A stretch of DNA of 57,638 nt, counting the filler, from Sphacelaria rigidula (taxonomy: Eukaryota): the NCBI GenBank assembly GCA_964200075.2. It is 9 parts of 9 records of this genome, joined end to end, with 100 filler letters (N's around TTAATTAATTAA, not from the genome) between each part and the next. Parts side by side here need not be neighbours in the genome. Positions count along the whole stretch, not along the records: positions 44,909 to 51,223 come from CAXNAA020020827.1; positions 51,324 to 57,638 come from CAXNAA020020828.1; 7 more parts are not named here. One strand, given 5' to 3'. Shown one piece after another: positions 4,801 to 52,149 of the stretch (position 1 is the stretch's first letter; each line of letters starts with the position of its first letter). Under the pieces are notes generated by a model. It made no database searches and had not been told where the DNA came from. It saw only the letters and a program-made list of their open reading frames with translations. Both the position numbers and the translations under genes were made by a program.

Positions 4801-5517
4801 AACAGTGGAAGATACACCAGACACGAATCCTGTCGGGCCTATGGGTTGCGAGCTTTCCGCTCCAGCACTCCCCACCGAAGTATTACCTCCTCCCACATAT
4901 GTTAGCCGCCCCGACACAGACGAACTTAGAGATCTAGAGTCATCACTTGAGAACGCACTTGAGGATACAGTAAATTTAACGGCGGAATTACAATTCTCCG
5001 TCGCTTTATTCCTTTTTGGCCCCTGCCTCTGCACCCGTATCTCTGGTTGCTCCGACCTTGTCCGCCATAGCGACCGCCTCGAGATCCTGACAAATCTCGC
5101 GCATTTCCTTGTGCAGCGCCTTTAGCGCGAGGCTTGGGGCAACGTCTTAAATATGCCCATGGTCTCAACAATTGTAATATCGGCGAGTGAACAACGCTCG
5201 CGAAGTCGGCAGCTGTTCCTGTTGCTTGCGCTCGTCATACTTTGACGTTTCTAACGGTTTATCCCAGACCAGCGGCATCGTTGCCGCTTGAGCCATGTTC
5301 TCTATGATGATTCAAAAATCACGGATAGACTTTTGCCTTACTTGACCGCCCCTCCAGCGGAGTGTGTCCCTCCAAACGCTGTGCGCTGTAAGCTGTCTTC
5401 CGTCTAAGAACCAGGTGCTTTCCGCAGCTTCAACAGGATCCGAAAAACCGTACAGCTTCGATCCTTTCTCCAGTTCCTCCAGGCCTTCCAACAGAGTGCC
5501 GAGAAATATCTCGATAT

Positions 5518-6416: not shown

Positions 6417-6807
6417 ATTCGTTTCCGGTGATGAGATATTGCTCTGCCAGGTTAAATCCGTTTCTGGGCTGGCCCAGCTCGTACACAAAAGGCGCACATT
6501 TCGTAAAGAGAAGGAGGAGGGGAGGCGGGGAGGTCGCCACCCACGTTGTTTCAGAAGAAAGCATTCAGAGCCCCATACACATGATGCGTTGGTATGTCTG
6601 CATACACGGCCTATTCCCGCACAAAATACTTGTGCAACTTCATCAACCCCTCCCTCGTGAAACTGTGACTCAAGGCCCGCTGGTTGGTCGCCTTATTCTC
6701 GTACCGAACTCTCATCCTGTTCAGGGAGGGACGGCGGGGGGGGGGGGGGGGGGGGGGCCCCCTCGCGGAAAGCGTGGGGGGTGGTGTGGNNNNNNNNNNC
6801 GTTCGGG

Positions 6808-6864
<57 letters not shown>

Positions 6865-7167: not shown

Positions 7168-10100
7168 CGATCCTGGACAACGCCGAGTTGTTTGCTGGCA
7201 AGACGGTGCTCGACGTTGGTACGGGCAGCGGCATTTTGGCTCTGTGGGCGGCACAGGCCGGTGCTGCCAAGGTAGGAGCTGTTGTGCGGTGCATCAAGTA
7301 CTCACTGATGATGCATGTGGTGTAGCCCGGTGTTGCAGACACAATCTCAGGAGGGGGTAGGGGGGGCGTACTCATTTGTTGCTTGCCTTAGTCATTTGAC
7401 AATTGACCACGCATCCCTTTCGAGACGGAGCAAGGGTAGGGGGGGGGAGCACAAGGCGAAATGCAGTATATTTCGCACTATGGTGAAGCAAGAGCGGTGG
7501 CAGAGTATATATCGATGCTCGTAGTCGACTGATGAAATCGCAATGATGCATCTTGTTATGTTGTCACTAACCTTCTCTTGTTTTATTTTATTTATCGCCC
7601 CGTATTTGTCTGGCGCGCGTGTGTACTGTAGTCGTTTTCATGTTTCGTCTTTTAAAGGGAAAATGGTGAGTACCTTGTTTTCTGTGCATGTTGTCGAATG
7701 AACCTTCGATGCTTATGCGCTCTGCTTTGCTCTCCCGAGGATATATTTCACGCTGCGGTTGGTATTGGCCAAATTCGCTTCCTATACTTGTAAGATTGAT
7801 GCACTGGTTAATGACGGCACGTTTGCTTCCCTTGCCTGTCCCCCCGATCTCTCGTTGGTGGCAACACGTGGCGCAAGGTATACGCGGTGGAATTCACCGA
7901 CATGGCCAACCACGCCAAACGTTTGGTGGCGAAAAATGGGATGCAGGACGTGGTAGAGGTGATTCAGACCAGCGTCGAGGACCTGGAACTACCCGGAAAG
8001 GTATTTGATTTTTGACCCCGCATGACTACAGGAAAAGCTAGAAATTATCCATGTGCGAGATTGAACCTACTGTGCTGTACTTTACGGTGTGCTTACGGTG
8101 AGTGCTTTTACCCTGGTACTGAGCTTGCCCGGGGCAAATTCTTCTCTGCTATACGGTGTGGATACCACTAGGTAATCCGGCTCGCCACGCGGGTGAGAAA
8201 GCACGGCTTCCTGGGGGCTCACCCACCATTTTGGCTCTACGGTGTCATTTGTAGTTGGTATCATAGAGCTGGAGTAGATTGGGAGCATTACGTTCGAGCC
8301 TTAGACCGCGAGAGTAGTTCGTCTGGATCCTGCATACTTTTTTCCAAGTGAAATTGATGCTAATGCAACAGATGACCTACTCTCGCAGTGTAAGGGTTGA
8401 GATATTTTGTCGGGGGATATTCCTGACTCTGGTGGACATACACGGCAAGCCTTCTAACAAAACTTCAATTTCGTGCGAGAGCGGTAAGCCTAGGCAAATG
8501 AGTACGCCTCCCCTTCCCCTTTTCCTTTCCCTTCCCCTTCCCCTTCCTCGAGGTGGACATTATTATATCAGAGTGGATGGGTTACTTCTTGCTGCGAGAG
8601 AGCATGCTGGATTCCCTAGTTCGGGCGAGGGATCGATTCCTCATCTCTGGGGGACTCATGTTCCCGTCTCGATGTACCATGATGTGGGGACTTATCAGCG
8701 ATGAGCAGGTATCGACAACACAAGAATGAGTAGTTGACTTGATTCGTCGATTGGTCGATTCGCTTGTCTCATATTTTACTGATTTGATACGATTTGGAGC
8801 CGCGGTTGGTGGTGAGGATAAGACGACCCAAGGTCAGTAAAGGACGAATAAACGCTCCCGGAAGGAAAGTCGGCTCGAGAATGATTTTTAGGAAAGAAAA
8901 TAGCAAGTCAAATCAAGACATGTCAGAGGAAGAGAAACGCACATGATGACCTGATAAAAAGACTCCAGACGATAAATAGCAAGGTATGTGTGTGGGTGCA
9001 AAGTAGATACACCGTATTTTCCGCAAGTATAATTAAACGCGCGTTTCCATCTCCTGCCGTCAGCCGTGTTTTGACGGTATTTGTACATGTGATGTGAACC
9101 GCTTGTCTTTTTTTGTGTATGCTCTATGTTGCTGGGGTAGCAGTGGGGGCCTCGTGAGCGACGTTGTTGCATGGGCTGCACTTGAGTAACAACACCGAGC
9201 GCGTTGTGATGAAATGCGTCTGTAATACTTATGCTGTGATGTCCAACCCTTGTGAAGAGGTGGAGGGGGGACGGGGGGCAGGTTCTTGGTCATAGCCCAA
9301 AGTGTTGGCGTCTAAAATACAAACGTTGATTATGTTTTCGCGTCCCGTTGAGCCCGGAAGTTGGTATGTTCAGCATTGCATTGTACGGCGTGTGTCGAGA
9401 TGCCATCTATCACGCAATTTAGATGCGGTTTTGCCCTGTGTGGAGCCCGCGTGTTTGTGTACATAAGATCATATTCCAGTGTATGTCATACTCCAGTTTG
9501 TCATACTTCAGGGTGTGTGTGTTGTGTGTGACGCGCGATCTCGCCGTGTGCACTCCAATCCCATCAACCGCCCCGCCTCTCGTGTGTGTCTGTGTCTGTG
9601 TGTCTGTGTGTCTGTGCCTGTGTATGTGCGCTCCTTCGTATATTGTACTCTGCCAAATGATTTGTGTCATGGTGACGTATGAGTGATGAACGTATACGCG
9701 AATACCACAGAAGAGAATGCTCGAGAGTGTTCTGTCGCTTCACAGGAGTAACGATGTTCCGAAAGAAATCATAATTATAATAAACACGCGTCACGCCGGC
9801 AAGCTGTGTGTCGTCAATCCTTTTCTGGGGAAGCACCCCACGTTTCATTTATGGATGGTTTGTACGTGTTGTGACACGTGTGGATACAAATCGGTGAAAA
9901 AAAGGACCGTCTGAGCAAGCAGCAGGAGTACATCCGCAGCATGCAGGACTGGTACAGCTTTAAGGGGGAGACGAAGGAGTTCTACAACATCGACATGAGC
10001 GTCCTCGAGGTGATGTCCGCTTTTGCTCGACAATGTTCTGAATGTCGTTTCGCTATTGGTGTGGATGCCGGTGCTCTCGCCTTGCTGCTGCTGGTGCCGT

Positions 10101-10978: not shown

Positions 10979-11286
10979 GTAAGGGGTAGAGAAGAAGGGA
11001 CGGAGCTTGGGCTGCGCAGCATCTGAGGCCTGAAGGCACGGCTTTTTTTTTCTCCTCTTAGAAAACGCCTGAGAATATCAATACTACTGTTGACGTGGAT
11101 TTTGTTTGCGCGGGGACAATTTGTTCAGTCGGTCATGGTCCAGTATATATCTGATGGGTGTGACGCTGCTTTCTTTGCCTGTTGAGTGGTTCACTTGGAT
11201 TAGGTCGGGATTTACGACATTATAATCAATTTTTCAAGGGGCTTTGGGTTGAAAGAGCATGAGGGCACCGGAGGCGGAGGGGGGCG

Positions 11287-11355
11287 GGGGGCATCACTCA
11301 TTTGTTGCTTTCCTTAGTCGCTTGACCATTAACTATGCATCCTTTCGAAACGGAG
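11287..11355 (-). mobile_element. ~65-bp LINE-3'-end element (copy 2)
   Basis: Same core (actcatttgttgctt..ttagtcg..tgaccatt..catccttt.gaaacggag); direct repeat cggaggggggcg at 11275-11286 / 11351-11362, overlapping the element end by microhomology. Confidence 0.8.
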
Positions 11356-14155
11356 GGGGGCGCCAAGCGCTGGTTTTGGCGGATCAACCCTTGGACTGAC
11401 AAGTGTCTGACAAGTCTTGTATTGTCTGCTGCAGGGGGTATATATATATATATATATACATGAATATATATATATATATATATATAAAGAGTTTCGGCGT
11501 CTTCGCCGCCACGATCAGTGGATTGACAACCAAAATACATGAGCACCGGTGATAGCTGTGTGCGTTGCGTAAAAATGATGCTGGTTCCACAAATGACGAT
11601 TTATCACAGGTGAACCTAGAAAACGCATTGCCATCGCAAGAACAAAAACAGACAGCTCGAGTCGTAGCTGCTTATCACCTACCCTGTGCGTGCCCTTGCA
11701 TTAATCTGATCAGAATTCAACGAGAAACGACGTTCTGCGTAAGACGCGCACGAACCGATAGTAATTGCGTGCGTTGCGTAGTGGCACAGTTCATACTTGG
11801 AAGAAAACGCCGTAGCTGCCCATCGGCTGAGCACCTTGTTCGTCGTCCTTGCACCCCTCTCTTTAGAATCCAGTGAGAAACAATCCGAAAAACGCCCCGA
11901 CGCCATGCAGAGCACAGTGTTGAGGGCACTTGTACTCCAGACCCAAGGAGACGCAGAACGCATTCGTTGTGCCCAGCGAAAGGCAAGCAAAGAGGTATCA
12001 GCGAAAGCGTGTACTCTAAAATCAAGCACAGACCCACGCATCAAAGCACGCTCGAGGCGTTCGATGCAAAGCGGTGTCATGATTAACGTCGTGTTCTGAT
12101 CGTCAAATAATAATGATGCCGATTCCACCGATGAGCGGTCAAGATCGATGACGTTCCCCCTGACGGTCGAAAAGTTCACTGAGACGTGAAGACAGGAAGC
12201 TCATGGCAGCGCAAGCCCTGATGCCATGTAAAACACAGCTCCAAGGGCATGTAGGACACAGTGTAGGAAGTAAATGTAGTCTATACCCAAGCAGAAACAG
12301 AACGCACCCTAATGTCCAGCGAAAAAGTGTAGTCTCGAATCAATTGAAGAAGAAATGCTGGCTTCTCAGAGCTTCATAAAACGAAATCACCACAAAACGT
12401 ATGTACTCTAAAACCAAGTGAAATAATACAGCAAAAGTGTACCTGTCTGCAGGGATCGAATATCAGAACAGTTGTAACCGACACAATTTTCATCTCTATA
12501 TTTATGTGGGTCACAAGTAAGTCGCGAAATATTCGCCTTGATTAGAACACTAATGTGGATGGAAAATAACCGGTGCTACGGTACTATGCTGTACTCTATT
12601 GTAGTGTGCCTTCGGAGTAAAAAGAAGGGTGACTTGAAGTTGTCTATTTTTTTTTTTTTTTACATCCTACGCAACCACTCTACCGTGTTCTGTCTTTCTT
12701 TTCTCTTTGTATTTTGCTCTTCGGTACGTTGTNNNNNNNNNNNNNNNNNNNNNNNNNNNNNNNNNNNNNNNNNNNNTTAATTAATTAANNNNNNNNNNNN
12801 NNNNNNNNNNNNNNNNNNNNNNNNNNNNNNNNTTTGATTTGAGTGATGCACAAGGTTTGTGTTAACAAGTACCGAAGCTCTTGAAAGAGTAGGGCGGCGC
12901 GTGCACTGCGCCCAGTTGATACGGGGTTCCAGTGGGCTCAGCTCCCACACTACCTCGGGCAAGGCCTTCCGAACACTCGAGGTGCCTACCCCACATAACT
13001 GCCACGCACGCGGTGGTCTCGCCGAACCTCCGGGTAATCGGCCCACGAACCCTTTCGCGAGATAGAGTGTTGGGTGAGGTTTCCTCCTTCCCTCAAGGTG
13101 AGAAACAAGGCTTATGGACAAGGGAGTGGCCTTCTTCGGGTGACAGAGTCGAGCACGTGCAAGCCAGCGAGCTTGGGCCATTGTCCGAAACAAAAGGCAG
13201 ACATGGTGTATACTGTACATTATATCCTCGTGCTATCCACATGTGAGACTTGCTCGGCACGAGGATTTGCCGCGAAAGTTACCTCGCACTTGCTCGCCTC
13301 ATTGTGCTGAAGATTCCTATGTAGCGTTCGAGCTCTGTGACGTTGCCACGTGACGTGATTCGCTCGCAGGAAATCAACCCTTGAGCAGCCTTGTCCTACC
13401 AATGATAAAGAAGCGCGTCCGAGGGTAGTCGTTGGCCGATATCACCCACGCCATCAGGAAATAATATTACATATTACACTTAGAAAGTCCGTGTCACTTG
13501 ATGGCGCTGTACGTTATCCATCCTCACCCACGGTCAAGCGGATATTGGTTGCTAGCCCAGTACGGTTTGTGGGACAAATCACCGTTTTGGGTACAAATGG
13601 CAGCTTCAAATCACCGGTCCTGACCCGGACCTACCAGGGGGCAAGCCAGTGCACAGAATCACCGCACGAACGACCGGAATAAACGAAAAACAAAGAGCTT
13701 CACAACAAACTCTCGAGTTATGTATGAAGGATCCATATCTTTGGTCGAAAGGGAAGCTTTCCCACCGTCTTTCCAGCCAATGTTGAAACATACAACGGCG
13801 TTTGCCATTTCGTTTTGCTTCCTTCTGTTTTTGCACGGTCTCGCTCCATAGAACCATGCGAAAGGGGCATGCAGTTTATTCCGTCGGCATTGTTGTGGAG
13901 CCGCTATGATACTATGAATAGTTGTCAGCAGCCTGGTGTTTTTCGTTTCTCCTCTCTCTTGTTCTCTTTTGTTTCGTGTTTGCTCTACGGTTTCCTCTTT
14001 ATGTTCTTTTTCTCTTTGTTATTCCCCCATTCCCCCATTTCTTGAGTTCTCTTCAGCAGGTGTTTACGTTTATTCATCCTGGGCATATCTATCGTGTGAC
14101 CACAGCTGGAGTCATTGCAGATCATTTATGAAAAAACAAGTCGAGTGAACGGGGG

Positions 14156-14231
14156 GGGGGGAGGGGGGTACTCATTTGTTGCTTGACTCAGCCGTTTGAC
14201 CATTAACCACGCATCCCTTTTGAGACGGAGC
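14156..14231 (-). mobile_element. ~65-bp LINE-3'-end element (copy 3) with extra G-run
   Basis: Same core; direct repeat gaacggggg at 14147-14155 / 14233-14241, plus ~13 extra G-rich bases at the element's 3' end. Confidence 0.83.
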
Positions 14232-14303
14232 AGAACGGGGGCGAGACGAATGCGTACGAATAACGGCGACAAAAAGCATCGTCCCGGCGTGGGAGAAACA
14301 TGG

Positions 14304-18049: not shown

Positions 18050-18300
18050 GGCACTTTCTACGATAGCCCCCCCCCCAAAACCTGCTAAAAGTGTAACGAA
18101 AACAACGGCCATACAGCGCCTGATGTTCGGGTTCAGGCTGCATGAAGCGCCTTATAATGGCGACATTGGCTAGAATGAACCCAAGCGTGGGAATTCCCAG
18201 CTTCTCGGTTACTCCGGCTTTTTCCATTTCAATTTACGTGAAGATTTTGCCTCCCAAAACCATACACTTGTGTGTGGGGGGGGCTATCGTAGAAAGTGTC
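18050..18300. mobile_element. MITE, CGATAGC-C-run TIR family (copy A)
   Basis: TIR cactttctacgatagcccccccc / ggggggggctatcgtagaaagtg; 4-bp direct flanks gcat/gcat; interior homologous to 47915-48173. Confidence 0.85.
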
Positions 18301-22390: not shown

Positions 22391-23084
22391 CAATGGGTGG
22401 TTTTCTCGCTCAGGCGACGCACGGCGCGATATTTGAAGTTGGACGCTGAAATTTTGACAGCAGCTTTTTATGATCAACATGCAGAATATCACGTGAGCAG
22501 GAAAGAGGAGAAGAAAAAACAGGAAGTTATGGGATTTGAAAATTCAGAAAAAACAAGATGACGTCATAAATCCAGGAAAAATGAGAATCTGCAGCTGCTC
22601 ACGAGACGTATCATTTCCTTGGGTGCAGAAGGTCTTCGTGAGGTTTCAGCTCAAGAGTCGTCGAATTCGGCCGTGCGTGAAACGTTTTGCGTGACGCTGC
22701 TTGCTGCTCCGCACGAATACCCAGTGCGGGGTGATTGCCGAAGTGAACCCACCGCATTTAAAAAAAAACACTCCGACACGCTATTGCCCAACTATATGAG
22801 GCGCACCCCGTACTCTATGCAGTACAATAACGTCATCGGCAATACGACGCCAATCGAACAGCGACGCAGTCCTTTGTCATCAGGTGGGTCCGCACTTCAC
22901 AGTACAGTGATATGCTTACATCGGGTTCATGCGGGAAACTGGGAAAGCTGTGGTGTGAGCAACTTGTAGCCGCTTCTAAGCTCGCCTAGCCCGTACTGGT
23001 ACGGGTCATACAGGGAGTATCGTTGCAACGTCGTTGTCGAAGCCGACTTCAGTAGGATAATGCTTACGTCGAGCCCACACATCT

Positions 23085-23157
23085 GGGGGTATAGCTCAGG
23101 GGTTAGAGTGTTCGCTTTGCATGCGAAATGTCGGGGGTTCAAATCCCCCTTCCTCCA
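23085..23157 (+). tRNA. trnA-UGC: tRNA-Ala (anticodon UGC)
   Basis: 73-nt cloverleaf: acceptor GGGGGTA/TTCCTCC with G3:U70 and one T-T mismatch; D stem GCTC/GAGT; anticodon stem TTCGC/GCGAA with TGC; T arm GGGGG-TTCAAAT-CCCCC; followed by TTTTT. Confidence 0.88.
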
Positions 23158-23415
23158 TTTTTGCCCTCGAGCCCCTCTGGTTAAATTGATACGTGTTTAG
23201 CCCTAGTTGTTGGCAACTCCAGGGTTCAACTCCTGCCAAATACGTGTTTTTTTTTTCTTAGAACAAAATACTGGTGTCAGACACTGAATTCTGCACGGGT
23301 TGAACGACGAAGATTTTTTTTCGAGAGTCTCGAAGCGATGCGGGAGTGGTAGTTCGATTCTCGAAACCAAATTTCAGGCAGGTGCATGCCGGGAGAGGGA
23401 TGTGTTGACATCTTG

Positions 23416-36600: not shown

Positions 36601-38594
36601 TTCTTGGTCTCCCACTTTCCACCCGAACCACATCAGAAGGGATAATGGTGGGAAAGTCCGCAAGAAGGCAGGGATTCACGAGGGAGAATGATCAACCTGC
36701 AGGAAGGTAGGTATCGAGGTATTTGGATGTATAGGGGTACTATTCGGCAACAAAAAGGTGGGTATAGTCGGCGGATTATAAAGAGGAATTCGTGGGAATA
36801 GGCCTATCGGCCAAGCGTTGATGCGGTGAGTTGATATTTTGTCAGGGGTTGGTTATGGCGTTCTCTCTTCAATCGTTAGTTGTGCATGGTTCGGATTCTC
36901 GACCAGTGAAAAACGGTCAATTTCGCCCCGTGGTAGCTTTTCCAGAGAAAATGCTTTGCTACATTGTCAATTCTCGAGCCATGAAAGGGCAAAATTGACT
37001 GTCTCATGAGCGGGAAGTCGAATTGTGCAAAATGACGGCACCAAGAGGGGCCGCACACGCGGCGGCGGGGGAGAGGGGTTGTCTGCGTTGAAGCGATGTG
37101 TATTGATCTTGGTCCGGGAAATCAAACGGTCTCTTCCCCGCCCTGGTGGTTGTTCAGTATGTTGGTGGGAGATCAGGTGAGTTTGTTGCGTGCATGCAGA
37201 CCAGCTACTGCTTTGACATCACACGCCTGGCTCCTAGCCGGACCGCTGAGGCGAATTCTGGAGTGTCGCCCACAAGGTTTGTTTGGCTGCCTGGCTGCAA
37301 AAAAGGTGAAGAATGCGGTGCCATTCATCTGTTCGTTGATACGGGACAAAAATAAAGTAGGATGGACATGTGTATGGTGGATTTAGGCATGTGCGACTGC
37401 TGTGGCCGGGTCGCTTGGGTGCAATCAGCAAGGATGGGGGGGGGATGATCGATAGACGAAAAATAAATGCTTGAGTTGAATCTTGGAGGTGAGGACAAAT
37501 CAAATCCACAATCAACGATCGGAAAAACGGAGTAAAACAAATGAAAGGTGTGCTGTGAGAAAGCATCAGAGTAAGTATATGGTGGGCGAACGTTTGCTCT
37601 TGGGCGCGGTAAGTGCATGTGGGTCTGCTGCGTTCTCCGCCGTGGACCACGGTGTGGTGTGTGCCGCGGCGCCGCGGAGCAGGGGCTGCTGAGGTTGAGC
37701 CTCGATGGACACATGTGCAGGGTAAGTACAAAGAGGTATGTACATCTCGTGTTCTGGGTGACCATCGATCTGTGATCAGCTGGGTTGTGATCTCGCGGTC
37801 ATTACACATGGCGAAATGGAAATGGCTTGGGGCAACCACCGGCGGGTATGCTGTCATGTGGTTGGGTGATCGGCTCATGTCAACCGTGACGGTATTGTTG
37901 TAGCCATTCTTGAACCTGTCGCCACCATCGGGTATCAATGCTCTGCATTTCGCAAGGCGGGTGCGGAAGCCGGGTTACATAATGGTAGACCCGTGCCACA
38001 CTTTTCACGGTCGTGTGTTGCAGGGGGCAAGGTAGGTGATGGATCACTTGTAGTCGGTGATCGACTAAGCTGAAGAACCATCCGTCCGTGTTTTGGTTGT
38101 TTCTTCGAAGAAGTGCCACGAGCACTTGATTCTCTCTTCTTTTTCTTCTCCTGTGAGGTTACAACTGTAGGGGCGTCATTCATCGTCTGTCGGTGTTGCA
38201 CTGCAGCCAGCCTTGGGGGAGACAGGCAGGATAGGGCGGCGCTATTTGGCAGCGAATCAGGACTTCTGCTCGAATACAGTTACTAACAGCCGATTCTCGA
38301 AAATGGGGTTGAAAAAAAAATGAGGTTCAACTCAAAAGCCGCGCTTTCCCTGATTTAAATTCAAGACCAATGACTTTCATATGGACCCCCCCANNNNNNN
38401 NNNNNNNNNNNNNNNNNNNNNNNNNNNNNNNNNNNNNTTAATTAATTAANNNNNNNNNNNNNNNNNNNNNNNNNNNNNNNNNNNNNNNNNNNNCCCCCCC
38501 CCCAAATAAACCCTCAGCGAAAATGAGGGGGGGAAAAGAAAAAAAAGAAAAAAAAAAAAAAAAAAAAAATGGCCCCCCCCCCCCCCCCCCCCCA

Positions 38595-39885
38595 CTAAGG
38601 CACAGATAGGAAGGATGGACGTGGTCCTCAGAGACTCGTACCTAGACACTAGGATTAAGAGATGTATCCTGATGGACGTGATCGTACCAAAGCTGGAATA
38701 TGCAGGTCAAGTATGGGAGGGGAACGTGAAATTGGTGAAACAGTCAGAAACAGTACAGATGGCAGCAGCTAAGAAGATAAATGAATGCTCGAAAACGACA
38801 AGTAATATAGTTTTGAGAGCAGAGTTGGGAATGTATTCCCTTACAACAAACAGAGACATGAAAATATTGATATGGTAATGTAGCGTAAAGAGCATGCAGA
38901 GGAAGAGATTGCCAGCTATAGTTGATAAGGCTGTATGGAAGAGAAGTACGAAAGGACATGCTATAAGGTGGGATGAAGAAGTCGAGAAAGTATGGAAGGA
39001 GAGACGAGGAAACCAAGACGAAATACTGTCCATAGTTGAAGGCACGGGGTGCAAGACAAAAGTAAGAGACATGATAGAAATAAGGGGAAAAGGAGCGCTC
39101 AGACGCAAGGTAGACGAGGAAGAACACCTGAAGATATACGGGTGGTTGAGAGAGGGGATCAGAATGAAAACATATCTGCATGGCGTCATGGACGCGGCAA
39201 AACAATTGATACTGCGATTTCGGGTGGAGGATCTGGACCTGCCAGAACCAAGAAAGAGATATGCCAGTAGTCGTGTGGAGGAGGAAGTAGAGGGACTGAA
39301 CTGCCTCTGTGACAAAGCAATAGAGAGCAGAAGTCATATAGATACAGAATGTGAACTATACAAGGAGGAACGGGACATGCTAGAGGGGGAAATTCGGGAC
39401 GTGAACGAAGGTGGCATGAAATCGTTTGATGCATTAGTCAGAAGCGAGAGAACGATGGTTATGGTAGGAGATAAATAGTGTCCGGATGTAATGCGTGAGA
39501 GGACCGCGTGCTTAGAGGACCGCACCGTAGCTCCAAACACCTCAGGATCGACATTTTCAAGACCATTCGGGCCAGTCCCTGCAGGGACCACGCCCTTGAC
39601 CCGAACTCCAACACTAACCCTATCCCTGATCCTAACCATAGGGATGTTCAACTTCCGACACGGTCCTCTAAGCACGCGGTCCTCTCACGCATTACAGCCG
39701 GAGACAGAAAAGCAGGACAGGGATAACATATGAACAAGGTTTTTGTGCAATGTGTGGAAGAAACGTAATGAGCGCCGGAATGTTGGAGGTGTCTCTATTA
39801 GGAGCAAGATCGGTGCTCCGGCTCGAAAGGGATGCGTGGTCAAGGTCAAACGACTAAGGCGAGCAACGAAATGCGGCTGCCCCCT
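38595..39885 (+). mobile_element. Non-LTR retrotransposon (LINE) 3' portion: post-RT region, C-terminal CCHC-like knuckle, short 3' end
   Basis: ORFs 38615-38878 and 38894-39478 read IVPKLEYAGQVW...VLRAELGM...RLP...CLCDKAIESRSHIDTECELY; coding resumes after a MITE (FLCNVWKKRNE). Confidence 0.88.
39486..39697. mobile_element. MITE with ~37-bp TIRs and CCGG TSD, inserted in the LINE
   Basis: tgtaatgcgtgagaggaccgcgtgcttagaggaccg is perfectly inverted at 39661-39696; ccgg on both sides; removal restores the LINE frame (CPETEKQ). Confidence 0.92.
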
Positions 39886-41712
39886 CCTTTTTGGGTTGGC
39901 GCCGGTTGGCAACTCGCTGCAAAACACGACATTGCGCAAGCTAGGCAACCAGGTTTCTTTCGCATGCGTTTTGTTTGCGGTAACCATGATGGTGGTGGAG
40001 CTGAATCATCTTGTGAGGCGTGAAGAACCTGAACTCCGCGAAAAATCAAACGATTGTCTTACGGAGTGTTCAAATGGTGAGACACCCATGAGGCAGTGTG
40101 TATCTCATGGCTATCTCTGGAAGCAGCAACACCAGAAAATGAAGCAACTCATTCGAGGCTGTCCTTCATGTGTAAGATAATCAGTACGCTTCGGGCCGAA
40201 CAATCTTATCAGAGTGAAGCTCACCCCTCATGTGGTTCGCCGAACACATCACGGCGCTTCGCGCTTGGTGATTGATTGCACGCCTGATCCGTCAAAACCC
40301 CGGCGTACTCCGTCCCGGCGTTATAGGAATGCAAAGTCAACGGTCGTATGACTACGGCATGTAGCACAATACGTATCCCCCCCACCCCACTCGCCCGGCT
40401 AGTTAGTGAGGAGACCTCGCCGGAGACCTCACCGGAGGCGCCGCCGGGGGCAAGACAATCGTCCTTTTGACTACCCTCTCTTTGAGATCAAGCTTATGCT
40501 TCACTGCCCGTGAGCACAATTTTGCGCGCACGGATTTTACCTGAAATACATTGGAGGCGAAGACGTCAAAAAGTACATCGTGTTCAGACTCGCTTGATGC
40601 TCACTGCAGTGGCGTCGACCTCCAGGGCCGTAACTGCTGGTTCTACTCCTGATCTCCCGCCTGACATACGTTGCTGCTACCTCCCCGCGCAATCGGCCAC
40701 GCAAATGCATACATGACAGAAGATATACAGGACAAGCTACTAAGCCACAGATACCAGGAAATCTAAAACCCTCTGTAGGACTGGGTAGACTAAAACTCTC
40801 AGGCTACCCACGCATCCCGTTACCGGAGTTTCCGATGGTTTCCGAGTGGTGATGGGGCATGGCTGAACCAAAGGAACGTCAAAGTTGAGTCGGAATCGAA
40901 AGCGAAACCTCTTGACCCGACCGTGTTGCGGTTTCATCTGGTATGGAATATGCTTCTTTAGCACCACGTTTGGGCCTGACACAACCAACCGTGGATAAAC
41001 CGCAGCCGATCGAAGAGATTCGAACGCTGATCACGAGAGTTACACCGCCCCCCGAATGATGCTCGACAGCCGTCACGATACCTTCCACATCACCAAACAT
41101 GCTGCTGTTGATCTCGATCCATTGAAAATGAGCTTACTAAGTTGACCGGTTTTCTACACGCCCATACAGCACAAGTGGTGTCAGTGTACACCTCAAGCAG
41201 GAATGACTACACACTGTTCGCACACCTCGTCACCGGTTTCCGCTGCGTCCAGAGTGAGACGGGACTGGAGACTCAAGAACATGTCGGGGCGGCACTATGC
41301 GGGACGGAACTTTGCGGGGCGGGCCTTCCAGTCTCGTCCCATCGAATATCTCCTGACACCGTTGCCCCGCGAAAATACCTGGACAGTTCTTGTAAAATAC
41401 CAACTTCTGTACCACCAGTAATGCAAGGTGTGCCCTAAAAGCACCGTGACAGCGCTACGAGAGGTCCATGAAACCCGTCACCATGCAGTTCCACTGCATC
41501 ATAATGATGACAAACGCTATTTTATTGTTATTTCGTGAGATAGGAGTGTTACCCTCAGGAGAGCACCACGAGCCCGCCATATGGTGTCCACACGGGACCC
41601 TCAAACGCCCTCATCAACGTACCATGCAATATCCGTCCGTGATAGTACTGACCACAGCAGGATCGAATTCTCAAGAGAAGGTAATGCCACATCTCTGATG
41701 GTCGGAACTCAC

Positions 41713-42912: not shown

Positions 42913-45226
42913 CTGTCATGTCCATAGATTGAATCCACCAAAAAGTTGAAAAACGAGCAGCGGTGGGGATGGGGCAGGGGATTGGGCGCGTCAAAATCAA
43001 ACGACCATAGGATGAGACAGATAGAACTATCCCGCGCCCGGGGTCGGTGGGGGATCCGTTACATCTCCTCGGAAGTGACACCTCCGGGTAATAACTTGGC
43101 ACTCGTGAACACCTACCCCTGCCGTGGGATATTTCTCTGCAACCACTTGCGTAGCCCAACGCTTATGGTCGACAGTGATATCGCACTGCGAACGTTTGAG
43201 GTGCTCTTCTTACTCTCCAGCGACAGGTTTTACCTTAGGGGCATAATATTTCATTCGCCTAGCATACATCGAGAGACATCGCTCATGTTTTCTAGACGCA
43301 AAGCAACAAACGGAACTAGTCAAGACGGACTAAATCGACGTGAGCAGGTCGCTCCTACTTCTTGCCGACCATCGTCCTACAGTCTCCCTTCTCCACTGCT
43401 GTAACGCTCGAGGTGGTTTCGCATGGCCACCCGTGCTGTGCCTATGACCGGTACCGACAACTCATAACCTGCCTGTGCTGCGCGCTTCGGCATAGTGTAC
43501 ATGTCACTAGAGGCGCCATGTACCAGCATACGTCCACATCTGATACAGCCCCGTCTGACACCGGTAGTATGCGCTACTCCATCGCATTGCCGTTAAGCGA
43601 CGATGGACGTCAACAACTAAGCAGGATGCATCCATACCCTGTCCGATATCATCGACAGTCATCACGTTCCAAGACCAAAACACTGTAACTGGCACATTAC
43701 ATCCTGATCAACGTTTTCTGAAGCATACGTGTTTTCAGCAAGGAATAATCTGCGTGGAGCACACCTTGGATGACATGTGATGCACTAGTAGCCGTAGGGG
43801 AAAAGAGTGTTGCGTAAAGTATCGAGCCTGTTGCCTATAACGAATAATACATGGTGCAGCATAACAGTTGCAATAAGAAAAACGTGTCCTGCGAGAACCT
43901 TCTGTCGACTCTATTGCCTATCGCCTATTGGCAATAGAGGGCTCGACTCTTTACCCAGCAAATATAAGTTTTAACAGGCTCGATACTACTATACGCAGCA
44001 CACGTTTTCCCTATTGCAACTGTCACACCACCGATTGTCCAAGGTGTACCACAGAGAACAAGTTACTTCGTCGTGCGCGATAGATGCAGACAAAACACAT
44101 CTGTGGTGGAATATCGGTACTTTTTACCTCTCGATCACCTGCTGTGCCCGACCAAACGCGTGGAATTTCATTTGCTCACACCCCGTGTTTGCGCCCCACA
44201 TAGCTCGTGGCGCTTTCGTGGCGCCACACTCCGACCGTATGCCTACATCGTATAGACAGTTTTCCCCACGTCGGCTTCACAACAACCTATTAGCTGAACA
44301 TTGCTGGTGCCAAACCTCCGAAGCTGACCATGACCACAATCCATCAGAGATAGACCGATAACCCCAAAGAAAGAGGGGGGACAGGGGGTGCCCTGGACGA
44401 AATGTCCGCTGCTTTCGGCTCTAACTGGTGCCGGTTCGGGTCAACGCACGTGCTGCGTTTTCAAGTTTTCCGAGTGGGTTATACGTGGGCGTGTGAAGCA
44501 ACAGGCTCAACAATTCATGTCAAGTATCAAGTTTTGGGCTCAGGAAGAATCACTCCCACCGATCGTCCTATTCGCTCACTCTTTGTAAGCACAGGTCGAT
44601 GTAAGGTGAAGCAAAGTCACTTCATCACGCAGAGTGTACACTAGCATATATATGTAAGAAAAAATATAACTATTTCACACTCTGGACAATAGAATATGAG
44701 ATATACATTGCCCGCTCAATATATTTTGGGCGAGCATCATCTCTGACTACTGCTCAAACTTCGGGATACACGCGACATCGTGGACGCAGGTTGCCCAAGA
44801 TGTGTCCGNNNNNNNNNNNNNNNNNNNNNNNNNNNNNNNNNNNNNNNNNNNNTTAATTAATTAANNNNNNNNNNNNNNNNNNNNNNNNNNNNNNNNNNNN
44901 NNNNNNNNACCTTCGACTTTCTACAAAAGAGTTGATTCATCACCCCCTGACCCTCCCGCATCCGCATGTTGCCCCCCCCCCTCCTACCCCCCCCGCGCAC
45001 TTCCAATACCAAAAGCACCCACGAAAATAGCCGAGGAAAACAGCTAAGGCAAGCAAGAAATGAGTACGCCAAAGCTTTGACTTTCTACAGAAGAGCTGAT
45101 TCATTACCCCCGACCCTGCCGCAGTCTCATGTTGCCCCCCCCGCCCCCTTCCCGCGGGCGCACTTACAATACAGCCGAGGATCTTCGGGCAAGCCCCCGT
45201 CCTCATCCACGTCATCCTCCACAAAG

Positions 45227-47507
45227 GATCACAATTTAGCGTCGATGCAGACAAGGGACGGCTACGGCAGCGTCCACGGTGATGACGGAGAAGGTTTGGC
45301 CTCCGATATAGACGGTGAGTTAACGAGGACATTCTCAGTCGCTGCAGCGGCAGCAGCGGCGGGTCAACGTCCTGGCCGTTACTCCGAAGACGGCGCTGAT
45401 TTCCGCACCGTCGATGGTTATGGAAACGGGGCTGGCAAGCGGGGTGGGAGGATAATGGATGGTGACGGTAATAGTGAGAGATACGACAGTCGCGCAGGAC
45501 ATCGGCCCGCTGCCGGCACGCTGGCGGCTGCCGTGGAGGAATCTCGCAAGATCTTGGGCCTGGAAGACGAAGACGAACATGACGACGACGGCAACCACAG
45601 CGACCAGCGTGGAGGGTTGTATCTGCGAGGTCCAGCGGTGGCCGGACGGTCAAGCGCGAGCGCCCGTGACGAAGATGATGAAGAAGGGACGGGTCCGGGT
45701 GTGTCTTCATCGAGCATGAGCCGCGTGGGTAGCGGTGCTGCCGGTGCTGGCCCCGGGGGTCGGGAAATGAACAGACAAGAGGTAGCAGGACGGGCGGTTG
45801 GATCGGGCAATAACTTGGGCATGATGCGGTACCCCGAAGGACACGGCGAGCAAGAGCGGGGAGAAGCAGGAATCTGGGGTCCCGTGGGCGGTCTCAGAAG
45901 GTCGCATTCTGTCGGGGGGGGCAGTAGTTCGCTGTGGCAGCAATGGACGCGGGCCGCGGTAGATGGTCATCTGACGAACATGTCTGCTGCTGCTATTGCT
46001 AATGCTTGGAGCGGTTCCGGAACTAGTTCTCGGAATGATACCAGCGCTGACTCTTGTAGCAATCACGACGCCGGTTCTCGTACTGCTTCCGGGACTAGAT
46101 CGAGTGTTGGTCGCGGCGTGAACTCGGAGTGGGCTAGGCCGAGCGGTGACGGATCCCAAAATGTTCTCGCAGACGGATCACCTATTGGGGTGACGGGACT
46201 TAAGAAGACAATCCGTTTGGGGTCCGATGGAGCGGCGGCTGCTACGGGAGGATCGTTAAATGGAACGGCTCATCAGGATGATGCAGTGCCTGAGGTAGGC
46301 ACCGATGCATCGGGGCGTGTCTGTGATAGCAGCAGCTGCGCCGTTACTGCCGCTGATGGGGTCGGGAGAAGCTGCGGCGGCAGCGGAAGCACCCACGAAG
46401 GAAACGGTAGTAAAGACAGCGAAATGAAGAACTGCGGTGTTGTGCGTAGCAAGGGGGCAGCAGAAGCGAAGGGTAGTCCCGGCATTAACGCAAGCGCACG
46501 TAAGCAATCCGACCACAGCCATCACAGCGGGGTGATGACGAGGAATACCAGCGACAGTGGCGAGGATGGTCTGGAATATGACCGCGGTCATGGTACCGGT
46601 TGTGTCGGGGACGGGAGCACCGCGGATCGTGATGCGGGTGTCGAAAAAAAACAGCACCCCCTCGACGTGTCGCAGCAGCACGAGGGGCAGCAGTACCGTT
46701 GGCCCCTCAACCAAACATTGTCGACATCTGTGGTCAACACATCCTCGTCGTCATCATCGCGATCCAGGTCGTCTTCGGCTCGAGGACTCCCGGCACCCCA
46801 AACCCAAGCCTCGGATGCGGCGCCTATATCTTCTTCCACGATTACTCTGCCGCCCCCTCCTTCTATCCCGCCATCGACTAATCTGCCGCGTGGAACCACA
46901 GTCGTCGACCCCAACACGAGCAGCACACACGGCGACACACGCAGCAACAACAGCGCTAACAAACCAACCACGACAACACTATCGTCCTCAGCAACAGAAG
47001 CATCGGGACTAAACCACCGTAGTACAGGAGATGATACAGTGATACCGTCAGAACACGCCGGCGAGATATGCGAGACTCATCCGCCTCCGGTCCCGCCGAC
47101 CCCCGCGGGTGCCAGCGATGATGTCCAACTTCCGGCGATGCCGACGAAGATCTACGGTAACAAGCAGCACCAACCGCGGTCGAGCAAGCGCAGAAAGCTG
47201 GCGGAGCTCTTGCACTTTCGGCGTCGTAGCAGCAACGGCGGGAGCAGCGGTAGCGCCGGAAGCATCGGAGGAGGTCGACGGACACCAACGCCACCACCGC
47301 CCCTACGGCAGGCGGAATCCGACACGAGTGCGGCAGCGTTGATGCCGAACCAAAGTATCGATAGTGCGAACTCGGCCGAGGGGGACAGTGTTGCCCGAAA
47401 CCGAAGAGCTGGATCTGCTCCCGCGGGAGAGCGGTTGTCGTCCGAGGCGACTGAAAAGGTGGCCGCAGTGCGGGAAGCGGCGAGCGGTTCGGGCAACGGT
47501 AGACTCG
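45227..47507 (+). CDS. Very large exon of an unknown Gly/Ser-rich, probably disordered protein (5' boundary uncertain)
   Basis: Part of the 860-codon open frame 44966-47548; GC-rich; phase-1 donor g|gtgagg at 47507; basic motifs such as SKRRK. Confidence 0.75.
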
Positions 47508-47914
47508 GTGAGGGATTTCGCTTGCAGTACGAAGGGGGGAAAAATTAGTCGGGTGGTGGTAGTGCATGTGCCCCTGCGGAGGACGACGTGCGTCATGCTT
47601 TCCTGTCCCTTGAAAATTATACGACCGCAAGGTTTACTTTGTCGAGTGTCTATTGATAACATTGATTGATTTGATTGATCGATTGATAGATTGTCGCACT
47701 TTAACTGATCCCCCAGGGGTCCAGCCGTGGTGTCATGATATGCGTGTGATTTTGGTGTTTTGACGTTTGCAGTTGGTTGGCTCGGAGGCGTCGGGGTCTG
47801 ACGAAGGACAACGCGTGGTGCTTGCTATTTATTTGCCGCATCTGTTTTTTTTTTCCTTCTTGTTACGGCTGGTATGGGCAAGTCGAACCGACCCGGAGAT
47901 AACCCCGAACCGAT

Positions 47915-48173
47915 GAGTGATGCCGCGATAGCTTTCCCCCCTCCCCCCCCAAAAAAAACTACCACGAAGAAAACGGTCATACAGCGCATGACGGGTGGTT
48001 GCGGACTGCATGAAGCGCCTCATACGGGGGCGACATCAGCGAAAACACTTCCAAGCGTGGGAGCCCCCAGCTGCTCGGTGTGCTCGGCGTTTGTCATTTT
48101 GATTTTGCGTGTAGATTTTTCCTCCTCAAAACAGCCACTTTACTGGGGGGGGGTGGCTATCGCGGCATCAGTC
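47915..48173. mobile_element. MITE, CGATAGC-C-run TIR family (copy B), intronic
   Basis: TIR tgatgccgcgatagc / gctatcgcggcatca; interior homologous to 18050-18300; flanks cgat/cgaa. Confidence 0.82.
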
Positions 48174-51021: not shown

Positions 51022-52018
51022 AAGAAAACAGAGGGAAAAAGGGTACAAGAGACACACAGAGTAGCCTAAAATAAGTCAAGAAGAGAAACGAAAAGAAAAA
51101 ACGAGGAAAAAAGAAGCGAGAGAAAAAAAAAAATGGAAATAGAAATGGCCGGCCTCTGCCACATGGTTTCGTAGGAAAAAGGGGTTGCGCGGAAAAACCA
51201 CACTCATACGAGCTGGGCCAGCCNNNNNNNNNNNNNNNNNNNNNNNNNNNNNNNNNNNNNNNNNNNNTTAATTAATTAANNNNNNNNNNNNNNNNNNNNN
51301 NNNNNNNNNNNNNNNNNNNNNNNCCCCCCTCCCCCGCTCTCGTCAAGGGTTTACTGCTGCAGTGGCGTGTGAATGGGGCGTCGCGTCCGCTTCGTTAAGG
51401 GGTGTCCTAATGGCAGGGGGTGCTGCCACTTAGGGTAAAATGTGAAGTATACTCACATTTCAATCGTGCTTTGATCCGTAAAGGGCGATGCTGTTTCGCT
51501 CTTTCCGTGGCAATACAAAGATTAACTGTAAAAGTGTATGGTAGGGAGGTGATTTACCTTTGCTGGGCGTCTTGTTGCGTGAGGACCTTAATCTTCCGCC
51601 GCACATTCGTCGGAGTTGGAACCTGTTGCGCTCGAGCCTCATCGTGCGCGGCTTCTAGCCCCTCAAGTCTGCGCCGGGACTCTGCCAGACTCTCCTCCTA
51701 CGACGTCATCGATGGGGCTAGCGTTACATTATTGCCGTATGCCTTGAAGCCGATCACACACTAAAATAGCACCAGGTGCACCAATGCACTTCAAGATAAC
51801 GCATTGCAGGTTTCGTGACTTGCGATTATTGGCAGAGGCCGTGTGCCCCAAGAAGATGTGGCGCGCATGTTGCCCGCGGTGCTAACTACCGCTGGCCTAT
51901 GGGACGGTTTTTGAGCTCTGTCGCGTCGTGAAGGGAACTCCTCCCGACGATGATTCATGGTTAGATGGTGAGATCATTGAATCAACCAAGTACTAGAAAC
52001 CGCAGTTGCTCTGCGGGG

Positions 52019-52083
52019 CGTACTCATTTGTTGCTTGCCTTAGTCGGCTGACCATTGACCACGCATCCCTTTCGAGACGGAGC
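52019..52083 (-). mobile_element. 65-bp LINE-3'-end element (copy 4)
   Basis: Same core; perfect 11-bp TSD gctctgcgggg (52008-52018 / 52084-52094). Confidence 0.9.
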
Positions 52084-52149
52084 GCTCTGCGGGGAGGAAT
52101 CTACTTGGCGATGATAATATAATTGGAAGAGGTGAATTGAACGGAAGAT

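Follow-up and report, generated by a model that had tools for sequence, protein, structure and literature searches.

In the L1 group of long interspersed nuclear elements (LINEs) the poly(A) tail of the RNA pairs with a T-rich strand that is nicked at TTTT^AA. Truncated elements of the RTE clade, in which the 3' untranslated region is said to be unusually short, were reportedly called short interspersed nuclear elements (SINEs) in the past. The present analysis deals with a group of very short repeats in a 57,638-nt stretch of the Sphacelaria rigidula genome (assembly GCA_964200075.2; hereafter the window), which consists of nine ~6.3-kb pieces with N-spacers between them. With high probability these units of about 66 nt are head-less, non-autonomous retro-copies of the 3' module of an RTE-X-type LINE of the brown-algal kind that is curated in Ectocarpus as RTEX-1/2_Ec32, inserted by target-primed reverse transcription at G-runs.

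Several properties of L1 recur in these units, namely variable-length duplications, frequent 5' truncation and, as proposed here, a homopolymer RNA tail complementary to the nicked primer; the differences are that C/G stands in place of A/T, that the tail of the window type would be encoded in the genome and not derived from polyadenylation, and that a common 3' module implies stringent recognition, whereas L1 is relaxed and accepts any poly(A) RNA. The likeness to the truncated RTE "SINEs" consists in a very short 3' untranslated region (5 nt plus the tail in the window type) and in high-copy SINE-like families that are LINE 3' ends, but the window unit is far shorter (~66 nt) and is composed entirely of coding sequence and a stop codon with a C-run tail.

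The closest record concerns Ectocarpus. In PMC12477816 the (C)n-tailed LINEs of this genus, which encode an endonuclease (EN) and a reverse transcriptase (RT), were labelled RTE-X by best BLASTP matches to RTEX-4_NV and RTEX-1_BF. In supplement file 1 of this source RTEX-1_Ec32 (5867 bp, best BLASTP match RTEX-4_NV) is annotated as 'single EN-RT ORF; (C)n 3'' (ORF, open reading frame) with a 'C-rich' duplication, and RTEX-2_Ec32 as '(C)n termini/TSD' (TSD, target-site duplication). Among the derivatives RTEX-N1_Ec32 (607 bp) carries the remarks '60 bp 3' end 83% RTEX-1/RTEX-2' and 'can be present in tandem' and, with >6000 copies, is the most abundant family of the Ectocarpus genome, and RTEX-N2_Ec32 is 188 bp long. 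According to the '(C)n 3'' and 'C-rich' entries the specificity is already on record for Ectocarpus RTE-X LINEs and their derivatives, and a prior description of this kind, which the preliminary description had named as a ground for refutation, thus exists in part. No mechanistic treatment was found; 'C-rich' has 0 occurrences in the main text of this source in its available form and C-tail, target choice and mechanism are not discussed there. A literature search for poly-C-tailed or G-run-targeting LINEs and for RTE-X likewise returned no mechanistic account, Repbase reports and subscription journals being outside its scope.

Compared by description, RTEX-1/2_Ec32 and the LINE considered here have in common a single EN-RT ORF, an element length of ~5.5-5.9 kb, a (C)n 3' terminus and C-rich duplications. 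RTEX-N1/N2_Ec32 resemble the window units in that a ~60-bp LINE 3' tail is common to abundant non-autonomous elements and can occur in tandem; however, the window units are head-less and measure ~66 nt as against 188 and 607 bp, and no family as short as ~66 nt is present among the table rows of PMC12477816 that were examined.

A more general precedent was given by Nishiyama and Ohshima (2018; PMC6007223), in the available part of which the first nucleotide of the duplication is correlated with the 3' microsatellite-like tail in RTE-related retroposons, and a role in directing cleavage to its site, in priming through base pairing, or in both, is proposed for the simple repeats at the 3' end of RTE-clade RNAs. 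The window units agree with these retroposons in that the start of the duplication matches the repeated nucleotide of the tail and in that short copies depend on the LINE 3' end. In contrast, the tails described there contain T/A, as in (GGTTTT)n and (CAA)n, while the window tail is a C homopolymer, and those systems show 1-2 nt of microhomology and a T-stretch located one helical turn before the nick, whereas the window duplications start with 4-7 C's. What appears to be new is the tail-only unit of ~66 nt with a clustered 5' end and very high abundance, and a coding tail with its stop 5 nt from the element end and a tail-encoded G[C/R]VVNG-type motif.

Copies of the LINE tip and their junctions

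With the full-length relative L017 (described below) as a sense-strand BLASTN query, short copies were found in the window at 7354-7432 (96% identity), 11279-11355 (86%), 14154-14232 (90%) and 52015-52083 (96%), all 4 beginning at LINE positions 5087-5089 and extending to the LINE 3' end, so that they represent LINE positions 5087-5152; when the flank script is considered together with BLASTN, the four starts fall within 5087-5094. A 19-nt tip pattern has 6 matches in the window, where chance alone would give 0.04. Piece 2 contains two of the copies, pieces 3 and 9 contain one each, and the LINE itself is in piece 7. The four copies named in the preliminary description (7367, 11287, 14156 and 52019) are thus real and match the last ~66 nt of the LINE, but that list was incomplete, as a 27-nt fragment of the extreme LINE tip (45044..45070, plus strand, BLASTN with L017, E = 1e-5), followed by CC only, had been overlooked. 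This fragment sits in the first unit of a local ~165-bp duplication (44909-45200) that is rich in C-runs (C10, C8, C8).

All four copies are on the minus strand, and their flanking direct repeats were located by script as exact matches. Copy 1 (7367..7433, 67 nt) is enclosed by 12-nt duplications at 7355-7366 and 7434-7445. Copy 2 (11287..11350) consists of a 5-nt G tail (11287-11291) and the tip (11292-11350) between 12-nt duplications at 11275-11286 and 11351-11362, and copy 3 (14156..14232) of an interrupted 12-nt G tail (14156-14167) and the tip (14168-14232) between 9-nt duplications at 14147-14155 and 14233-14241. Copy 4 (52019..52083, 65 nt, 96% identity to the L017 tip), the sense of which is the window minus strand, is bounded by gctctgcgggg both at 52008..52018, which is the 3' junction of the element and where the G-run abuts it, and at 52084..52094, which is the 5' junction. 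On the plus strand the exact duplications are gggtaggggggg (copy 1, 12 nt), cggaggggggcg (copy 2, 12 nt), gaacggggg (copy 3, 9 nt) and gctctgcgggg (copy 4, 11 nt), which bears out the earlier claim of 9-12-bp direct flanking repeats with G-runs at all four copies; the run lengths in the two duplication copies of copy 1 are unequal (C9 and C7).

Read in the sense orientation the duplications of copies 1-4 are CCCCCCCTACCC (12 nt), CGCCCCCCTCCG (12 nt), CCCCCGTTC (9 nt) and CCCCGCAGAGC (11 nt), all of them starting with C4-C7 (or CGC6), and because every sense duplication opens in this way the first-strand nick would lie on the opposite strand, where a G-run ends on its 3' side. In sense orientation the element terminates in ...AAATGAGTACG, for which copy 2 has ...GAGTGATG and copy 3 ...GAGTAC. 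C's beyond the duplication are present in 2 of the 4 copies, as CCCCC in copy 2 and as the interrupted 12-nt CCCCCTCCCCCC in copy 3, the latter being the extra C's that had been reported at first sight. At its 5' junction copy 2 shows a 5-nt microhomology (CTCCG, sense) a few nucleotides further into the element. None of the four window copies has poly(A) at the 3' junction, as the preliminary description had stated, and with no A-run there and with C-run-first duplications in 4 of 4 cases the units do not resemble an L1-type poly(A)-dependent retroposon. As a separate observation, the variant 3' end of copy 2 (sense ATGAGTGATGCC; 11287-11300) has 12 nt in common with the outer inverted repeat of a foldback element at 47915 (47915-47935; E = 0.006), which may be due to chance.

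Could the units be DNA-level elements, either related to miniature inverted-repeat transposable elements (MITEs) or produced by recombination, or else poly-G artefacts of sequencing or assembly? The MITE-like elements of the window do have C/G-runs in their inverted repeats, a G22...G55 stretch of the window is broken by an assembly gap, and two-colour Illumina chemistry yields poly-G reads. Nevertheless this explanation is extremely improbable, as the unit lacks the terminal inverted repeats of a MITE or cut-and-paste transposon and its duplications vary in length (9, 11, 12 and 12 nt), the units follow the LINE 3' end collinearly and have a strict polarity, the C-run being 3' in every case, and the G-runs, which are part of an exact duplication on either side, are seen again in independent assemblies and in two studies.

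The LINE, its relatives and the coding tail

The window LINE (38596..39887, plus strand) is a 5'-truncated, decayed RTE-X-type element of which the last ~1.07 kb is present, preceded by C21 and followed by CCCCCTCC. L017 matches it by BLASTN in two blocks (38596-39483 and 39710-39887), between which a 226-bp MITE-like insert (39484-39709) separates the end of the LINE ORF from the tail; the 45-nt inverted repeats of the insert (39478-39522 and 39661-39705) are 96% complementary. The decay of this copy is evident from an in-frame stop. Immediately upstream, at 38494-38593, the sequence runs through C10, G7 and an A-rich stretch with A22 to TGG and C21, and the truncated LINE appears to have landed in or beside this compound homopolymer region.

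The LINE ORF piece finds the proteins P0001 (62% identical) and P0002 (1328 aa, 54%), the latter with an Exo_endo_phos domain (PF03372, residues 142-383) and an RVT_1 domain (PF00078, residues 710-959). The relative L017 has one ORF of 1382 aa from stop to stop that ends 5 nt before a C13 run, with no further sense ORF of at least 100 aa in the ~1 kb upstream, where the contig may cut the 5' end of the element. The arrangement of P0002 and L017, with a single ORF, an N-terminal endonuclease of the apurinic/apyrimidinic type followed by the reverse transcriptase and no separate ORF1, is a trait of RTE-X. Of the named relatives the closest belong to Ectocarpus sp. CCAP 1310/34, among whose proteins P0005 shares 92% identity with P0002 across 76% of the query, and the Ectocarpus relatives end in the same tail-encoded peptide as the window-type LINE. 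When two LINE ORF pieces from the window were searched there was no useful match, and the protein atlas gave only generic EN/RT clusters.

Further LINE ends were obtained by pattern scans. A degenerate tip pattern gave 11 loci in metagenomes, 3 of which are true (L003, L006 and L009) and 8 of which are chance matches in unrelated DNA; the scan of a prokaryote genome collection gave one locus (L012) on a contaminant-like 5.3-kb contig of the metagenome-assembled genome G001, and it is this whole contig that constitutes L017. A search of L017 for a duplication and a 5' end found neither, and two tip patterns gave 0 matches in viral contigs. All four loci (L003, L006, L009 and L012/L017) are longer LINE ends, in each of which ...GAGTACG is directly followed by a C-run (C8, C10, CCTCCCCCCC... 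and C13). Interrupted C-runs are found in the tail of copy 3 (CCCCCTCCCCCC), in L009 and at window position 39877.

These ends bear on the question of whether the C-run is a pairing RNA tail at all, as it could instead result from untemplated addition of G's to the nicked DNA or the cDNA by the RT or from later homopolymer slippage, with targeting purely by the endonuclease or by DNA binding. Such an origin would agree with the presence of C's past the duplication in only 2 of the 4 copies and with the slippage visible in copy 1 (C9 against C7), and some LINE reverse transcriptases need no primer-template pairing, e.g., R2Bm as cited in the available part of PMC6007223. Still, it is decidedly unlikely, because longer LINE copies on four unrelated contigs all have a C-run (C7-C13, one interrupted) straight after GAGTACG, as is expected of an encoded tail, because '(C)n 3'' stands in the Ectocarpus consensus notes of the PMC12477816 supplement, and because the tail of copy 3 resembles the interrupted C-runs at L009 and at 39877, which fits template copying.

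The ORFs of intact relatives pass through the 66-nt unit and end ...GAPSRKGCVVNGQMTKASNK. As the TGA within AAATGAGTACG is the stop codon, nothing but GTACG and the C-run follows it. Among 5 LINE ends aligned by eye the last ~100 nt are visibly better conserved than the upstream coding sequence. In 24 of 121 relatives the stop is preceded, at a distance of 4-10 residues, by the motif G[C/R]VVNG or a less strict form of it (regex [GCRSAE][VE][VAG][NYD]G), 23 of the 24 being among the top 33, at ~38% identity or more; in P0001-P0034 a motif of this type is kept within otherwise highly variable C-termini, and its persistence would fit a conserved RNA tail read in frame. From the protein sequences alone, conservation at the RNA level and at the peptide level are both compatible with the data, and the comparison suggests that the LINE tail may be a recognition module. 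In SINE terms, the 3' tail in common with a partner LINE is present by BLASTN, while a classical SINE head, derived from tRNA, 7SL or 5S RNA and with an internal pol III promoter, is absent, as the unit follows the end of the LINE ORF collinearly over its entire length.

For the 66-nt unit the predicted fold comprises a terminal stem (UGCUC/GAGUA), a hairpin of 5-6 bp closed by a GAAA loop and another hairpin (hairpin 2), and the short copies share a 5' end that coincides with the first base of the predicted terminal stem. Own mapping of the sites that vary in at least 5% of the depth placed them at 52046-52049 (loop of hairpin 2) and at 52042 (G-U to G-C) and nowhere else, a placement within the predicted fold that is suggestive. 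Rfam gave nothing relevant on the window at the gathering threshold and only an unrelated weak hit on L017 at E up to 10, and an HDV-like fold (HDV, hepatitis delta virus) threaded by eye on the unit had no P1 partner; no known self-cleaving ribozyme (HDV-like, hammerhead and similar) was thus recognised at a processed end, a result that applies to known types and leaves room for a novel one. The sole Rfam/ARAGORN hit in the window is a tRNA-Ala (TGC) gene at 23084-23158 (plus strand), unrelated to the copies.

Abundance, tandem arrays and G/C tracts

The contigs of four sequencing runs (X1-X4), all of which contain piece 9 of the window, were placed on positions 51960-52140 at a likeness of at least 82%. 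X1-X3 represent one organism and one study (X1 and X2 the same sample), and X4 is an 'algae metagenome' from a second study. Between 15,129 and 35,808 contigs per run fell on the unit, where the summed word depth reaches a peak of 4.0-19.9 million, as compared with 16-67 in the unique right flank; the resulting ratio of 2.5-3.4 x 10^5 is not a copy number. The unit is very abundant, with perhaps 10^4-10^5 copies or more. Its edges at 52015 and 52083 are sharp, the depth climbing over 52009-52022 and dropping over 52079-52092.

Before 52015, where the 3' junction lies, loose ends were counted in 691-938 contigs per run, and their position-wise consensus is a G-run of ~14-22 nt (agreement 0.44-0.48). 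Together with the 4 of 4 related LINE ends, this consensus in four runs extends the G-run association, first proposed from a few copies, beyond the window. Behind 52083, at the 5' end, 841-1185 contigs per run break off with a consensus that mixes 'A' plus G-run with ACCGTTCCTACTCC..., and since the latter is the LINE reading on, both short and longer copies must be common. The head-to-tail joint 52083->52015 was present in 44-72 contigs per run, as against 0-22 for each other listed joint, and the letters between the tandem copies are AGGGG, AG, AAG, AGGGCGGG, ACCGTT or GCGA. Tandem arrays with short G-runs are as expected if new copies enter the C-run left by older copies.

The question arises whether the short units are no more than ordinary, essentially random LINE 5' truncations, the common start being a sampling effect or a mild hotspot. 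Extreme 5' truncation is usual for LINEs; the loose ends behind 52083 in X3 and X4 continue into the LINE (ACCGTTCCTACTCC...), so that greater length is common among the copies; the window itself includes a copy of 1.07 kb as well as the fragment of 27 nt; and 4 of 4 matches outside the window are longer copies. On the other hand, the starts of 4 of 4 window short copies within LINE positions 5087-5094, the clustering of tandem joints at 52080-52084 together with the predominance of the 52083->52015 joint in the counts given above, and the 'A' plus G-run in the loose ends and joint letters, which fits one preferred start, make purely random truncation unlikely.

The G/C runs of at least 7 nt in the window number 28, while 4.5 were expected and none of 200 first-order simulations gave more than 11. 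No more than 4 of the 28 (7360, 7439, 14151 and 38573) are next to a tip copy or the LINE, so the tip family accounts for a minority of the G/C tracts of the window; the suggestion of the preliminary description that the family could seed such tracts is only weakly supported, the family not being their main source, at least in the window. At 6736-6864 runs of G22 and G55 lie ~50 bp apart, the spacer including a 10-N assembly gap, with no LINE tip adjoining, and a homopolymer assembly problem is possible there. Two foldback/MITE-like elements of ~245-260 bp (18052-18298 and 47915-48173) have inverted repeats of 26-27 nt with a C8-C10 / G8-G9 run at the end (...CGATAG(C), then the C-run); their interiors of ~200 bp are homologous by eye and the outer parts of the repeats differ. 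Beyond two MITE-like pairs and one local duplication, no other repeat families that end in C-runs were found in the window. An open frame of 865 aa at 44951-47548 (plus strand), rich in Ser, Gly and Ala and with no Pfam match, may encode a protein of low complexity or may be open by chance, the DNA being GC-rich; the Pfam scan of 112 further window ORFs gave one sub-threshold chance hit, and five long ORFs gave nothing.

Proposed insertion route and its implications

Polarity, variable-length C-run-first duplications, extra C's in some copies, encoded C-runs and tandem arrays are evident at the junctions. In the route that we propose for them the mobile module would consist of the last ~20 ORF codons, the stop, the five letters GTACG and a (C)n tail encoded in the genome. 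The endonuclease would nick the G-rich strand where a G-run ends on its 3' side, the putative sites being GGGG^A, G7^G, GGGGGGCG^C and GGGGG^C; the freed 3'-OH of the G-run would anneal within the C-run of the RNA and prime the cDNA, and annealing in different registers would leave 0-12 extra C's. A second nick 9-12 nt away would make the duplication, and nicks in these two positions would yield a sense duplication that opens with a C-run. Each insertion would then leave a C-run on both sides of the new copy, that is, fresh targets, from which tandem unit-(C)n-unit arrays would arise. The 5' end at ~66 nt coincides with the 5' edge of the predicted closed three-way RNA fold, and the likeliest sources of this end are a protein-bound module that survives RNA decay or processing, or an RT that leaves the template there.

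Several points weigh against this route. Primer-tail pairing is a step that we infer from the junction anatomy only, and copies 1 and 4 (2 of 4) need no tail, as the target alone accounts for their junction C's. The 5' end is clustered and not unique: copy 2 begins 5-10 nt later with microhomology, an ACCGTT class with 6 more LINE letters occurs among the tandem joints, many contigs run on into the LINE (ACCGTTCCTACTCC...), and the 27-nt fragment is present too. The predicted fold has an energy that does not differ significantly from that of shuffled sequences (z = -1.37 with the L017 unit and between -0.98 and +1.28 with individual copies), and although 94.7% of the cells are paired across 8 distinct sequences, 63 of 500 shuffles reach the observed score, the tested structure itself being derived from one of the 8, so there is no convincing covariation. 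X1-X3 belong to a single study, and the sample that gave rise to the window may be among the runs, which are not independent of it. Finally, the RTE-X label derives from the BLAST labels in the PMC12477816 supplement and from matching features. On balance the interpretation given in the preliminary description is partly supported, being largely right in outline with the pairing step as its conditional part; the supported elements are the origin from a LINE tip by retro-copying, the lack of poly(A), the position at G-runs, a C-run that in many units exceeds the duplicated target or lies apart from it, and a bias that is genome-wide in the four runs.

The value of these results consists in mechanism and scale and not in the discovery of the phenomenon, the basic specificity being already on record for Ectocarpus. 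A LINE lineage that uses C/G would be a second homopolymer system beside L1, in which endonuclease choice may be separated from primer-tail pairing. The head-less ~66-nt unit is a very small sequence that is apparently sufficient for mobilisation and helps to define the RNA recognition element of the RT, and the tip family may explain part of the G/C homopolymer excess of the genome.

A joint reading of all these features, in which the ~66-nt tip is a self-sufficient minimal retroposon with a closed three-way-junction RNA that serves at the same time as the last 20 codons of the LINE ORF, C/G-primed and self-targeting, is rather doubtful, and it is mentioned for its consequences. If it were true, the tip would be among the shortest known retroposons, translation would stop inside the recognition module of the RT itself, which would favour cis capture, and the decay or processing of LINE RNA would leave a protein-protected 66-nt RNA still able to insert. 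Target regeneration would then drive a runaway amplification, of the order of 10^5 copies by the depth ratio, and the spread of G/C tracts in brown-algal genomes.

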